DNA of 24,916 nt from Nitrospirota bacterium (GTDB taxonomy: Bacteria > NPL-UPA2 > JAGMAN01). Position numbers and translations under genes: made by a program. The stretch lies in NCBI GenBank assembly GCA_030605915.1, contig JAUWHM010000129.1, forward strand, positions 1 to 24,916. Reading direction: 5' to 3'. Each line of letters opens with the position of its first letter. The first letter of the stretch is position 1. Positions 2 to 16,570 of this stretch are shown here, in pieces. The notes under the pieces were generated by a model that saw only the letters and a program-made list of their open reading frames with translations, was not told the DNA's origin and did no database searches.

Positions 2-277
2 TGGGCAAAGGGGAAGGAAGTTGCCGGAGCAATTACCCTTGTCTACGACCACCATAGAAGAGATCTTGTAAACAAGCTGACCGATATTCAACATAATTTT
101 CACGACCTCATCGTCTCCAGCCAACATATTCATTTAGACGAGAGCAATTGTTTAGAGATAATTGCCGTGAAAGGTAGCCCTAAGAAGATCGAACAACTTG
201 CTCACAAGATGAGGTCCACAAAAGGGGTGAAACATGGCTCTCTCACTCCAGCGACCACCGGGAAGGGACTTGTATGA
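2..277 (+). CDS. nikR: Nickel-responsive regulator NikR, C-terminal Ni-binding domain (5' partial; not in ORF track)
   Basis: Hand translation of frame 2: WAKGKEVAGAITLVYDHHRRDLVNKLTDIQHNFHDLIVSSQHIHLDESNCLEIIAVKG...GVKHGSLTPATTGKGLV*. Contains the QH...HxH-x5-C Ni-ligand pattern of NikR; stop TGA at 275-277. Confidence 0.95.
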   Translation, partial: WAKGKEVAGAITLVYDHHRRDLVNKLTDIQHNFHDLIVSSQHIHLDESNCLEIIAVKGSPKKIEQLAHKMRSTKGVKHGSLTPATTGKGLV

Positions 278-299
278 ATGGTATTTTTTTGGGTTTTAT

Positions 300-326
300 G
301 TAACACGAATATTCAGAAGGTACTAC
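300..326. promoter_or_regulatory. Candidate NikR operator 1 (GTAACAC-N13-GTACTAC)
   Basis: Pseudo-palindrome with outer GTA...TAC, 23 nt upstream of the hypA ATG; 23/27 identical to 1506-1532; adjacent to nikR. Confidence 0.75.
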
Positions 327-349
327 AAACCTCATTTGGGAGATAAAAC

Positions 350-598
350 ATGCATGAATTTGGAATTGCCAGGACTATCTTAGACAGTGTTCTTAAGAAA
401 GCTGAAGGACACGGAGCAAAAAAGATTAGCCGGGTTGCTTTAAAGGTCGGGCAACTAAAAATGGTTACTCCTTCCTCTCTCCAGAATGCCTTTGATTTGG
501 TTTCATCCGGAACAGCGGCTGAAGGAGCAAAATTAGAGGTGGAGGAGGTAGCTGGAGACGAATTGTCTGTCCAGAGCATTGAAGTAGATACAGAATGA
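350..598 (+). CDS. hypA: HypA/HybF-like nickel metallochaperone, short form lacking the zinc-binding domain
   Basis: N-terminal MHE, KISRVALKVG, SLQNAFDLVSSGTAAEGAKLEVE and C-terminal GDELSVQSIEV all match HypA. No Cys; 82 aa. Confidence 0.85.
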   Translation: MHEFGIARTILDSVLKKAEGHGAKKISRVALKVGQLKMVTPSSLQNAFDLVSSGTAAEGAKLEVEEVAGDELSVQSIEVDTE

Positions 599-1503
599 GA
601 ATACTAATTACAGGTGGAGCGGGTTTCATCGGTGCCAGTTTAGCGTTGGAAATTGAGAAGAGATTCCCATCGTGGCAGGTAACTGTCCTTGATGGTCTTT
701 CGTCAGGTCATATTAGAAATATAGGAGGGTTTAAGGGAGAATTGATTGAAGGAAGGGTGGAAGATGAAGAACTCATCAATAGTTTGAATGGGAAAAATTT
801 TGATTTCATACATCACCAGGCAGCAATTACCGATACCACAATAGATGATGAAGAAAGGATGATGAGGGTAAATATAGATGGTTTCAAGAATATTCTAAAT
901 CTGGCAAAGAGGCAAAACTCAAAAGTTATCTATGCATCATCAGCCGGAGTTTACGGCAATGGACTCATGCCGATGAAAGAATCTCAAAGACTGGTTCCTT
1001 TGAATGCTTATGCCTTATCCAAGGTCCGAGCAGATGAGCTGGCTCTTACCTTCGCTAAAGAGAACAAAGATATGAAAATAATAGGGCTTCGCTATTTCAA
1101 TGTCTATGGACCAGGAGAGGAGCATAAGGGAAAATCAGCCAGTATGATATGGCAACTGGCCGTGCAGATGAAGAAAGGCAGAAATCCGAGAATTTTTAAG
1201 TATGGGGAACAGGAAAGAGACTTTGTCTATGTGAAGGATGTAATAGAAGCTAACATTATGGCGATGGAGGCTAAGGAGAACTGCATAGTAAATATTGGCA
1301 CTGGTCAGATGACGAATTTTAACGGGATTATAGAAATCTTAAACGAAGTCTTGGGCACGCATTTAAAGCCGGAATACTTTGATAACCCTTATGATTTCTA
1401 TCAAAATCAGACCCAGGCAGATACTGCTTTAGCTGTTCATCTTTTGGGATTCAAGGCAAAGTTTAGCATTGAAGAGGGAATAAGGGACTATTTTTTCGTC
1501 TAA
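595..1503 (+). CDS. rfaD: ADP-L-glycero-D-manno-heptose 6-epimerase-like extended SDR
   Basis: TGGAGFIG, HQAAITDTT, YASSAGVYG, YALSK (YxxxK), RYFNVYGPGEEHKGKSAS, RDFVYVKD. Start overlaps the hypA stop (ATGA). Confidence 0.8.
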   Translation: MRILITGGAGFIGASLALEIEKRFPSWQVTVLDGLSSGHIRNIGGFKGELIEGRVEDEELINSLNGKNFDFIHHQAAITDTTIDDEERMMRVNIDGFKNILNLAKRQNSKVIYASSAGVYGNGLMPMKESQRLVPLNAYALSKVRADELALTFAKENKDMKIIGLRYFNVYGPGEEHKGKSASMIWQLAVQMKKGRNPRIFKYGEQERDFVYVKDVIEANIMAMEAKENCIVNIGTGQMTNFNGIIEILNEVLGTHLKPEYFDNPYDFYQNQTQADTALAVHLLGFKAKFSIEEGIRDYFFV

Positions 1504-1505
1504 GG

Positions 1506-1532
1506 GTAACACGAATGTTGAGAAGATATTAC
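1506..1532. promoter_or_regulatory. Candidate NikR operator 2 (GTAACAC-N13-ATATTAC)
   Basis: Near-copy of 300-326; starts 2 nt after the rfaD stop and heads the leader of the TonB-dependent receptor. Confidence 0.75.
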
Positions 1533-1576
1533 TATCTCAGAGATTAATTTCTTTATCAATCCGGGCCGGAAGGGAG

Positions 1577-14771: not shown

Positions 14772-14790
14772 ATTTACGGAGGAAGATAAA

Positions 14791-15432
14791 ATGCTTGAAT
14801 TTTTCCTAAAAGGTGGTCCTTTAATGTGGCCGATTTTGTTGTGTTCGGTAATATCTATCACCATTATTTTAGAGCGCCTTTACCATTTCTATCGGGCAAG
14901 GACAAAAATTCCCAATATTTTCGCAAGAGTGAAGAGACTTTTGCAAGAAGGCAAAGCTGACGGGGCATTGAAATTATGTGAAAGCACCTCCGGTCCAATT
15001 GCTCATATCTTAGCCATAGGAATTCACATTCGCAAGAGAAGTTTAGAAGAAAAAGAGAAGATAATTACTCGTGCTGGCTCAAGAGCAGTTCGGGAATTAG
15101 ATAAAAATTTGCGCGGATTAGCGATTATTGGCAATATAACTCCGCTATTAGGCTTATTGGGAACGGTAACGGGTATGATTAAAGCCTTTATGAAGATTCA
15201 AGAATTGGGCGGGAGAGTAGATGCAAGTGTCTTGGCTGGCGGTATCTGGGAAGCACTTATCACTACCGCCGCCGGTTTATCAGTAGCTATCCCAACCATA
15301 ATTTTCTACCATTATTTCGAAGGTCGAGTCGATAATGTAGCCTCTCAGATGAAGGATGTAGCATCGGAACTTTTAGAGATAGAACATATATCAGCTACAA
15401 GCAGGAAAGAAAATGAGAACTATGAAATTTGA
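14791..15432 (+). CDS. exbB: ExbB (MotA/TolQ/ExbB proton channel)
   Basis: GGPLMWPI, TPLLGLLGTVTGMIKAF, AGGIWEALITTAAGLSVAIP; context with exbD and tonB. Confidence 0.92.
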   Translation: MLEFFLKGGPLMWPILLCSVISITIILERLYHFYRARTKIPNIFARVKRLLQEGKADGALKLCESTSGPIAHILAIGIHIRKRSLEEKEKIITRAGSRAVRELDKNLRGLAIIGNITPLLGLLGTVTGMIKAFMKIQELGGRVDASVLAGGIWEALITTAAGLSVAIPTIIFYHYFEGRVDNVASQMKDVASELLEIEHISATSRKENENYEI

Positions 15433-15433
15433 G

Positions 15434-15466
15434 AACCACAGACTACACACATTAAAATCACAGATT
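15434..15466 (+). repeat. Degenerate CACAGATT-type short repeat between exbB and exbD
   Basis: aacCACAGACTaCACACATTaaaatCACAGATT (three related 8-mers). Confidence 0.4.
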
Positions 15467-15479
15467 ATTATGGAGTGGT

Positions 15480-15896
15480 ATGGTGGAGTTTGACAGAAGG
15501 GAAAAAGTTCGCACACATTTAAATATTGCTCCTTTAATAGATGTCGTTTTCTTGCTCTTAATCTTCTTTATGCTCTCTTCACACTTTGTTACCCAGCCCG
15601 GGATAAAGATTACATTACCCACTGCTGTTACAGCAAAGTTACACTCAGAAGAAGATATCATTATCTCTATCACTAAAGATAATAATTTGTATCTAAACGA
15701 AGACCAGATTACTTTAGATAGCCTTCTGGATAAACTAAGGATAAAAGTAGGAGAGGCCAGGAAGAAGACTGTAATCATCAAGGCAGATGAGAAGATAGAT
15801 TTGGGCTTGGCGGTAAGGGTTATGGATATTGCCAGGCAGGCAGAAGCAGAAGGATTGGTAATTTCAACCAGAATAGAGTACCAGAACATACCCTAA
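15480..15896 (+). CDS. exbD: ExbD/TolR
   Basis: LNIAPLIDVVFLLLIFFML (conserved TM Asp), VIIKAD, VMDIARQA. Confidence 0.93.
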   Translation: MVEFDRREKVRTHLNIAPLIDVVFLLLIFFMLSSHFVTQPGIKITLPTAVTAKLHSEEDIIISITKDNNLYLNEDQITLDSLLDKLRIKVGEARKKTVIIKADEKIDLGLAVRVMDIARQAEAEGLVISTRIEYQNIP

Positions 15897-15944
15897 TGGG
15901 CACAGGCCGGGGCATACCCTAACGGGCACAGGCCAGAGCACCAG
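15876..15944 (+). repeat. Composite repeat: 2x 26-nt ATACCCTAAYGGGCACAGGCCRGRGC, bounded by GAGTACCAG/GAGCACCAG
   Basis: Units at 15888-15913 and 15914-15939; supplies the exbD stop codon (15894-15896). Confidence 0.8.
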
Positions 15945-15955
15945 TAAGGGAAGTC

Positions 15956-16570
15956 ATGTTTAATGATAGAATAATTAGAATTTCTTTTCTTGTTTCTCTA
16001 TCTGGACATTGTCTGCTTTTAGGTATGCCGGAGTTTAATATGAGTTCACTTCAACCTGAGAAACCAGAAGATATTACGGTTAGAATAGAAATAGAAAAGC
16101 CCCCACTTTTGCCTAAGATAGATGTTATGGGGGAAGAGAAGAAGTTAAAGGAGCTTATTAAAGAACAAGAACCCCTCGAACCAGAGCCTGAGACCGAAGT
16201 TCTGCCGGAAGAGGTGACAATAGAAAAACCAGAACCAGAGCCCCCTGAAGAAAAGGTTGAGGTAATAGAACCTGCCAAAGAGGCAATGTTACGCTATCAA
16301 GATATGGTTAAGAGAAAGATAGAGGAGATGAGGAGATATCCCCGGTGGGCAAAGGACAGAGAAATTGAGGGAGCAGTCCACCTCTCTTTTCGCGTTTTAG
16401 CAAATGGTCAGGCACAAGGAATTGAGGTAACAAAGTCCTCAGGATATATAATTCTTGACCAGGCTGCTACTGCCACCGTCCAAAGGGCTAATCCCTTTTC
16501 TCCTCTACCCAGGGAGATTACCACCCCCTATGTCTCCATGGAAGTTGCCATTATATTTAGCTTGCAGTAA
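15956..16570 (+). CDS. tonB: Energy transducer TonB
   Basis: N-terminal TM with SxxxH (SLSGH), Glu/Pro-rich linker, YPRWA...IEGAV, SSGY.ILDQAA. Confidence 0.92.
   Translation: MFNDRIIRISFLVSLSGHCLLLGMPEFNMSSLQPEKPEDITVRIEIEKPPLLPKIDVMGEEKKLKELIKEQEPLEPEPETEVLPEEVTIEKPEPEPPEEKVEVIEPAKEAMLRYQDMVKRKIEEMRRYPRWAKDREIEGAVHLSFRVLANGQAQGIEVTKSSGYIILDQAATATVQRANPFSPLPREITTPYVSMEVAIIFSLQ

Follow-up and report, generated by a model that had tools for sequence, protein, structure and literature searches.

A NikR-box-headed operon with a cysteine-rich CobN-like protein in a Nitrospirota genome as a candidate nickel-scavenging system

The operon described here occupies positions 1814-16570 of a 24,916-nt stretch of DNA from a Nitrospirota bacterium, which is an entire contig (C166; JAUWHM010000129.1) and is called the window below. 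The contig belongs to a metagenome-assembled genome of 1.26 Mb that is 81% complete, in a small phylum with 13 species genomes. The operon combines an outer-membrane receptor, an exporter, an importer, a CobN-like protein with its ATPase partner and a Ton system. Nickel acquisition is well supported as its role: an operator matches the NikR signal, the nickel linkage recurs in both bacteria and archaea, and the genes found in the genome and published proteomics agree with it. Our fuller reading, which we put at a little under an even chance, is a NikR-repressed operon that imports a nickel chelate, with a Cys-rich chelatase-like enzyme removing the nickel and an ABC-2 type pair exporting the ligand. 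Regulation by nickel, what the substrate is, whether the metal is taken out or put in, and what the exporter does are the parts that we infer.

Gene identities were assigned by Pfam and NCBIfam profile searches of the window proteins. Every gene named in a first-pass annotation of the sequence was confirmed, including the run of 11 co-oriented and partly overlapping genes and the adjoining nikR and HypA-like genes. All of the genes discussed in the window from nikR to tonB lie on the forward strand. The operon starts with a TonB-dependent outer-membrane receptor (TBDR; 1814-4018; plug and barrel domains). An ABC-2 type exporter follows, made up of a DrrA/NodI-like ATPase (4137-4970; PF00005; TIGR01188 drrA, 305 bits with a cut-off of 312) and a NodJ/DrrB-like permease (4967-5707; PF01061). 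The importer consists of a periplasmic binding protein of the B12/heme/siderophore class (5704-6930; PF01497, Peripla_BP_2), a FecCD/BtuC-type permease (6927-7991; PF01032, E 1.3e-90) and an ATPase (7988-8767; PF00005), whose GTG start overlaps the permease stop. The next two genes encode a Cys-rich CobN-like large chelatase subunit of 1297 aa (8770-12663; PF02514, 1332 bits; NF004646, 2085 bits with a cut-off of 1468) and a ChlI-ChlD fusion with an AAA+ motor and a VWA domain (12696-14771; TIGR02442, 837 bits with a cut-off of 779). Genes exbB (14791-15432; PF01618), exbD (15480-15896; PF02472) and tonB (15956-16570; PF03544) close the operon. Starts overlap stops at four junctions; the overlap between the exporter permease and the binding protein is doubtful, because the signal peptide of the binding protein starts only at about residue 50. 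Terminator-like sites inside the operon showed no excess.

The nickel link begins with the regulator and its sites. Positions 2-277 hold the 3' part of a nikR gene, encoding the C-terminal nickel-binding domain (PF08753 NikR_C, E 1.5e-34); the 5' end of the gene, and with it the DNA-binding domain, is lost at the contig edge. The domain retains the high-affinity nickel site in YDHH...HIHLDESNC, which we take to be His76, His87, His89 and Cys95 by E. coli NikR numbering. Two NikR-type boxes were found. Box 1 (GTAACAC-N13-GTACTAC, 300-326) lies 24 nt before a hypA-type gene, and box 2 (GTAACAC-N13-ATATTAC, 1506-1532) lies 281 nt before the receptor gene. The two are identical at 23 of 27 positions, and the identity ends at the edges of the 27-bp boxes. 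The delta-proteobacterial NikR signal is GTGTTAC-N13/14-GTAACAC, and Desulfotalea (D. psychrophila) has the reversed form, GTAACAC-N13-GTGTTAC (Rodionov et al. 2004). Both boxes match this reversed signal at 12 of 14 positions. Box 2 had been proposed as a putative NikR operator in the first-pass annotation, and the published signal and the near-copy before hypA both back that proposal at the level of sequence. Regulation of the operon by nickel would follow from these sites. The hypA-type gene (350-598) encodes a short HypA-like nickel metallochaperone of 82 aa, which has the N-terminal nickel-binding domain only (PF01155, residues 1-69 of a 112-position profile), contains no Cys and no zinc domain, and scores below the HypA equivalog cut-off (TIGR00100, 65 bits versus 88).

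NikR-type sites are rare in this genome. The pattern GTRNYAC-N13-RTRNTAC has just three genome-wide matches: box 1, box 2 and C140:7173. The third site (C140:7173-7199, GTGCTAC-N13-GTAATAC) stands immediately 3' of the TTGACA-N17-TAATAT promoter of a second nikR paralogue, which is cut by the end of contig C140 (7243-7471; locus L129). Since this box directly follows the promoter, the second nikR is probably autoregulated. All three genomic sites thus adjoin nikR, hypA or the window operon. A single nikR gene split across C140 and C166 was considered and rejected; the two pieces overlap in homologous sequence yet differ, and are therefore paralogues. The looser pattern GTNNNAC-N13-GTNNNAC occurs at three places in the whole genome versus about 22 expected from shuffles, an unexplained depletion.

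The genome also shows a demand for nickel. Contig C79 (L130:32-7338) carries a group-4 membrane-bound [NiFe] hydrogenase-like complex with NuoB/C/H/I-like subunits, and its large subunit retains both CxxC motifs (RICGICSTSH and DPCYCCTER). A PhoU-domain gene sits among these hydrogenase subunit genes. A fragment of a carbon monoxide dehydrogenase (CODH) or a hybrid-cluster protein was found at the end of contig C163. Searches of the recovered genome found no CbiM/NikM, no NiCoT and no other known nickel importer.

The operon is not confined to this organism. The clade of the window CobN is common to anaerobic bacteria and methanogens (54-80% identity). Its closest homologues, in L035 and L037, are 74-80% identical and share the gene order of the window, including the ABC-2 pair; L035 also ends in an ExbB-ExbD-TonB tail. 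Both of these contigs end at the receptor gene. Receptor orthologues with 60-81% identity are numerous, mainly in Desulfobacterota. Among 43 receptor-seeded loci with enough downstream sequence, the binding protein was present in 36, the permease in 31, the importer ATPase in 33 and a CobN homologue in 31. Archaeal homologues (50-61% identical) occur in Methanoregula, Methanosaeta, Altarchaeum and Argoarchaeum. Of 22 archaeal loci, 15 keep ChlID, 18 keep the ABC-2 ATPase (next to CobN), 16 the binding protein and 17 FecCD, and 14 have a nikR-like gene within 10 kb.

A survey of related loci for NikR boxes had been suggested in the first-pass annotation, and boxes or nikR genes were found in both domains. 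In L122, the order is nikR, box and TBDR; this nikR is 61% identical, 8 nt separate the box from the ribosome-binding site that follows it, and the nikR promoter has a box of its own. In L075, a 13/14 box is placed at -179 of the TBDR, and importer and CobN genes follow. L105 has a NikR-type box before a related TBDR. Eight Methanoregula loci (L008, L009, L014, L020, L025, L028, L031 and L033) show GTAWTAC-type half-sites 80-190 nt upstream of cobN. The density of these half-sites there is 16-fold that of the remaining locus sequence, and many are spaced 30 bp apart; they may represent an archaeal NikR-type operator with other spacing.

Proteomics published in 2025 for the methanogen Methanothermobacter marburgensis supplies a parallel. 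When nickel was limiting, CobN1 (D9PVN3, MTBMA_c06860, 143 kDa) went from roughly 7e6 to roughly 2.5e9 intensity units (~300-fold); it did not rise under iron limitation. NikR1 increased about 30-fold under nickel limitation only, and two putative transporters were co-induced (PMC12350162). One of these transporters, MTBMA_c10530, adjoins the ChlI/D-like genes c10550-10570, which had been proposed earlier as nickel chelatases (Kaster et al.). CobN1 resembles the window protein in its CobN annotation, in its similar size and in having no linkage to cob genes; it is abundant only when nickel is limiting, alongside a NikR homologue and the putative nickel transporters. The two systems differ in that M. 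marburgensis is archaeal and so has no outer-membrane receptor or Ton system.

The CobN-like protein is a full-length CobN/ChlH-type subunit, covering positions 2-1089 of the 1090 in PF02514. It keeps the His of the superfamily-wide HxGxHG motif (HVGTHG at 553-558, His557). The residues expected at the metal site are different. Domain V reads FGCCCYFGTHGGM, with GCCCY at 1101-1105, at a position where M. tuberculosis CobN has ADSDDYFQYHGGM (DSDDY motif) and ChlH has TDVSHYFDSD (DVSHY motif). The acidic and His residues of class I chelatases are thus replaced by Cys-Cys(-Cys). Counting back from a common GG, rather than by alignment, Asp1208-His1209 of HmuS would fall on Cys1103-Cys1104. The Cys-Cys pair is invariant in 50 of 50 CobN homologues of all the loci taken, including a shorter 1136-aa subfamily and the archaeal copies. 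A five-residue Cys-rich insert, RGCAGPRCDGRVC, which is missing from CobN and ChlH, lies in the gating loop of the central cleft and contributes cysteines C511, C516 and C521. Seven cysteines (Cys511, 516, 521, 574, 966, 1102 and 1103) show 98-100% conservation across 60 clade members. Such a thiolate-rich cleft would fit a soft metal such as nickel, or an Fe-S cluster. CobN proteins in plasmid records are at most 35% identical to the window protein. In the ChlI-ChlD fusion, the Walker A sequence is GTAKST (not GTGKST), and the Walker B (YVDE) and metal-ion-dependent adhesion site (MIDAS; DSSGS) motifs are intact. The AAA+ ChlI-like motor and ChlD-like VWA/MIDAS partner of class I chelatases are thus both present, without the cobalamin or (bacterio)chlorophyll gene context of those enzymes in the window.

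Four published systems were compared with the window. The cobalt (CobN-CobST or CobN-ChlID) and magnesium (ChlH-ChlI-ChlD) chelatases share its domain families, full-length matches and intact AAA+/MIDAS partner. The window differs from them in having no cob or bch context and no tetrapyrrole synthesis in its genome, in having Cys for the DSDD of CobN or the DVSH of ChlH, and in its Cys-rich gating-loop insert. HmuYRSTUV of Bacteroidota (HmuS, PDB 9d26) is expressed for metal acquisition and likewise combines a TBDR with a protein of the CobN/ChlH family, which acts on the metal of a tetrapyrrole brought in from outside; both large proteins keep the superfamily HxG(T/A)HG His. HmuS is marked by its Met-rich insertion, by Met79/His254, by the LSLDHxxEFMGG motif (with His1209), by membrane anchors and by working without ATP, and the function of archaeal "CobN" genes has been described as unclear (PMC12583661). 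HmuS is membrane-anchored and ATP-independent, whereas the window protein is predicted to be soluble and has Cys-Cys-Cys at the Asp-His position. It lacks both the LSLDHxxEFMGG motif and the Met-rich insertion (its Met content is 2.9%), and its termini are hydrophilic. The operon as a whole differs from Hmu in its ChlI-ChlD motor, cytoplasmic ABC importer and ABC-2 exporter, and in having NikR as its regulator rather than an iron signal. In P. aeruginosa, the receptor PA1922 and the CobN-like PA1923 are more than 100-fold up under Zur control, with an undetermined role (PMC4542158). Compared by description, PA1922-PA1925 resembles the window as a metal-starvation regulon that pairs a TBDR with a CobN-like protein (plus an ExbD-like protein); it differs in responding to zinc through Zur, and its listed genes include neither a ChlI-ChlD fusion nor an ABC importer nor an ABC-2 exporter. 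The comparison with H. pylori concerns transport.

H. pylori takes nickel across its outer membrane through the NikR-repressed receptors FrpB4 and FecA3 with ExbB-ExbD-TonB, and uses CeuE and FecDE. The likeness to the window lies in NikR-controlled, TonB-energised nickel passage and in a Peripla_BP_2-class protein that binds a nickel chelate (PDB 4ino). The H. pylori set has neither chelatase-like proteins nor an exporter.

Taken with these parallels, the genes can be arranged in a pathway. When nickel is scarce, NikR would come off box 1 (300-326) and box 2 (1506-1532). Powered by the ExbB-ExbD-TonB of the operon, the receptor would carry a nickel chelate across the outer membrane, and the binding protein, FecCD permease and ATPase would move it into the cytoplasm. 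The candidate chelates are a nickelophore or a nickel tetrapyrrole, for instance F430 or a product of its degradation. In the cytoplasm, the CobN-like protein, with the ChlI-ChlD AAA+ motor as its drive, would most likely pull the nickel out of the ligand onto its thiolate-lined cleft. The metal could then be handed to HypA and the hydrogenase, and the ABC-2 pair would expel the emptied ligand. Import, ATP-driven nickel removal and ligand export seem to us the most economical reading of the conserved module of importer, motor and exporter.

Many of the orthologous bacterial operons are preceded by something other than a NikR box. A conserved element of about 115 nt was found upstream of the receptor gene in many of them, with the layout GGAAGGCAGC-loop-GCTGCCTTCCCGGTGAAGC...GGATACTTCA...TATACCACC...CGTCAAC. 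A covariance model (R1) built from nine copies gave 20 hits with E<2e-4. Every hit is on the coding strand, and almost every one immediately precedes a gene for a receptor with 38-79% identity to that of the window. Examples are L053:823-938, L039:9818-9928, L060:775-886, L085:4528-4644 and L118:803-919, with about 15 more. Compensatory changes were seen in 12 of the 20 modelled pairs, in an alignment fitted to the model, which favours structure. The observed values were reached by none of 500 shuffles, and slid controls gave 22-49% pairing versus 90% observed. An extra long-range helix around the core covaries by eye (CCCCTCGA/TCGAGGGG, CCTCGGGG/CCCCGAGG, ACCCCA/TGGGGT and TCCCAA/TTGGGA). A known riboswitch was rejected for this leader: Rfam gave no match for the orthologous leaders, at gathering score or at E<=10, and the window had no Rfam family at gathering score and none at E<=10 in 1450-1850, which spans its 310-nt leader. 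We regard the leader RNA as a candidate riboswitch linked to this pathway. Its loop GGTCAGGA...CTGCC resembles a B12 box.

The window itself was searched with model R1 with filters off, and a relic of the leader was found at 1683-1792 on the forward strand. Only the first hairpin is retained (1683-1744; 12.7 bits, with 65 model positions deleted), followed by a perfect 12-bp stem at 1750-1792 recognised as inverted repeats. The box-bearing loci L075 and L122 are without leader RNA. The same operon was looked for elsewhere in the phylum of the host and rejected, as the receptor is present in none of the 12 other genomes. Because a leader relic remains in the window and the receptor is absent from the rest of the phylum, the operon was probably acquired laterally. 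The history this suggests is transfer from a Desulfobacterota-like donor, followed by loss of the RNA switch and placement under a copy of the host's hypA-type NikR box.

Two loci with this leader have unusual gene neighbourhoods. L076 bears two leader RNA copies in its receptor/CobN operon, and the first (L076:2210-2323) precedes a 424-aa protein without a Pfam match; a gene for a BtuF-CbiZ fusion (L076:2-1516, minus strand) is divergent from this operon. In L032 (832-13289; Desulfobacterales), the leader RNA is followed by part of a receptor gene, by a NifH-like gene and a transposase gene, and then by a pair of NifD/K-like genes, a duplicated binding protein and finally a Cys-rich CobN. Nitrogenase-like reductases act on nickel tetrapyrroles in F430 synthesis. 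Recurrent NifH/NifDK-like or CbiZ genes near CobN were rejected as a pattern, with NifH/NifDK-like genes in one locus and CbiZ in three.

Several results weigh against nickel-chelate import and stripping. Most orthologous bacterial operons are headed by the structured leader RNA and not by a NikR box, and no sigma-70-like promoter was found beside box 2. Boxes with at least 12 of 14 matches number 16 in 1.4 Mb of related loci versus 16-23 in shuffled sequence; a general enrichment of strong boxes was rejected, and the argument therefore rests on where the boxes lie. The 22 archaeal loci come mainly from one genus and are non-independent. Membership of M. marburgensis CobN1 (D9PVN3) in the Cys-Cys clade is something we infer. 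A corrinoid connection is hinted at by the BtuF-CbiZ fusion that adjoins L076, and by the B12-dependent mutase genes and CooT near L042. With a genome that is 81% complete, all gene absences are provisional. Finally, the CobN-like protein is nearer in sequence to inserting chelatases than to HmuS and retains the ATPase partner that HmuS does without. Here the first-pass annotation, which had suggested that the operon may import a nickel tetrapyrrole or metallophore and strip its metal, with a nickel-inserting chelatase as the alternative, fared unevenly: the nickel link gained from the operator, its recurrence, the proteome and the genome content, and the tetrapyrrole-stripping core lost ground to the CobN/ChlH affinity and the missing HmuS signatures.

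This affinity leads to the first alternative, that the CobN-like protein and ChlID form a nickel-inserting class I chelatase. The pair would load scarce nickel into a macrocycle or cofactor precursor, the importer would bring in a metal-free ligand or nickel, and in methanogens the enzyme could serve as a high-affinity backup for CfbA in F430 synthesis. Against solved structures, the window protein scores 590 bits with CobN (7c6o), 529 with ChlH (4zhj) and 381 with HmuS (9d26), so its sequence is nearest to inserting enzymes, and its AAA+/VWA motor is complete, as in those enzymes. Induction in M. marburgensis under nickel limitation would suit a high-affinity insertion route, and a nickel chelatase is the older proposal for the ChlI/D-like genes of that archaeon. 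The bacterium itself gives such an enzyme little to work on. The genome has at least five open reading frames (ORFs) with B12-binding domains, and no TP_methylase, CbiB or ALAD was found in it, indicating a B12 auxotroph that salvages corrinoids and makes no tetrapyrroles, and so has no endogenous tetrapyrrole to metallate. These gene searches had been proposed in the first-pass annotation, together with the search for nickel enzymes that turned up the hydrogenase. No mcr or cfb context was seen, and the tight linkage across domains to a chelate-type importer and an exporter would be superfluous for insertion. CfbA, moreover, is the established F430 chelatase (PMC8179277). We regard insertion as unlikely.

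A corrinoid or cobalt system is a further alternative, in which the receptor would be a BtuB, the CobN-like protein and ChlID would be a cobaltochelatase or a corrinoid-remodelling enzyme, and the NikR-family regulator would sense cobalt or control hypA alone. NCBIfam labels both proteins as cobaltochelatase subunits, and the genome needs B12, as its B12-binding ORFs and cobU/cobT salvage genes indicate. The receptor gene is the sole TBDR found (one Plug match), so a second role for it in corrinoid passage is possible. The B12-box-like loop of the orthologous leaders, the L076 CbiZ fusion and the L042 mutases keep a corrinoid-type ligand in play for the leader family. The receptor and binding protein do not look like corrinoid proteins by profile: the receptor scores 192 with the BtuB model TIGR01779 (cut-off 599.7), and the binding protein scores 57 with the BtuF model NF002894 (cut-off 234). 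The receptor is below the cut-offs of the NCBIfam heme, B12 and siderophore receptor models alike, and the relatives of the binding protein in the PDB are weak and mixed (heme-binding ShuT, the nickel-binding H. pylori CeuE 4ino, and BtuF). Pfam found no cob or bch genes in the window, and Rfam no B12 riboswitch, in agreement with the first-pass annotation, which had also held that B12 riboswitches consistently heading homologous operons would speak against a nickel role. At gathering score, none of 15 homologous loci (272 kb) had such a riboswitch, and at E<=10 none was seen in the nine loci or leader regions searched. The same search does find the genome's own cobalamin riboswitch (RF00174, 92.8 bits), at the head of a cluster of BtuF-like, FecCD, ATPase, CobU and CobT genes on contig C87 (L128:745-5636). 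Corrinoid import is thus controlled in the usual way elsewhere in the genome, and the window operon was rejected as the cell's corrinoid importer in view of this btuFCD-cobU-cobT cluster. The NikR linkage in two domains of life, the published induction specific to nickel limitation, and the cysteines in place of the acidic metal-site residues of true CobN also stand against a cobalt role, which we consider rather improbable.

Hmu-type salvage, with heme imported and its iron removed, would suit the resemblance of the layout to hmuYRSTUV (receptor plus CobN-like protein), the best NCBIfam receptor model (heme/hemoglobin subfamily, 229 bits) and the DtxR-FeoA and two feoB genes at 17757-24916, but it is very improbable given the missing HmuS signatures in the CobN-like protein, the ATP independence of HmuS and its lack of a ChlI/D partner, a receptor score under the model cut-off of 317, and a sole operator-like site of NikR type, with no search made for Fur/DtxR-type sites.

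If nickel is removed or inserted by this protein, class I chelatases would be extended to a new metal, and perhaps to a new direction of reaction, and hydrogenases, CODH and methanogenesis would gain a new nickel supply route in nickel-poor, sulfidic habitats. The operon suggests that a widespread "CobN" family, whose function in methanogens and other anaerobes was called unclear in a 2025 paper (PMC12583661), serves to scavenge nickel. It gives that family a gene module (importer, exporter and motor, with a receptor in diderms), a regulator in NikR, and a signature in the Cys-Cys(-Cys) motif and Cys-rich gating loop. A wider proposal is that the Cys-rich CobN-like/ChlID pair is an ATP-driven nickel de-chelatase, by which methanogens and their bacterial neighbours would mine F430-type or other nickel chelates and export the emptied ring, with many Desulfobacterota switching the operon through riboswitches of a new class, responsive to nickel status or to the chelate itself. 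We think this doubtful as a whole, though worth entertaining.

The remaining genes of the window lie on either side of the system. An ADP-glycero-manno-heptose 6-epimerase gene of lipopolysaccharide core synthesis (595-1503; TIGR02197, 285 bits with a cut-off of 274.6) overlaps hypA start on stop and ends 2 nt before box 2; it is a probable passenger. Positions 16748-24916, 3' of tonB, hold two feoB genes with an OprB-type porin gene between them, preceded by genes for a PIN-domain protein and a DtxR-FeoA fusion, and the contig is therefore a metal-uptake island.

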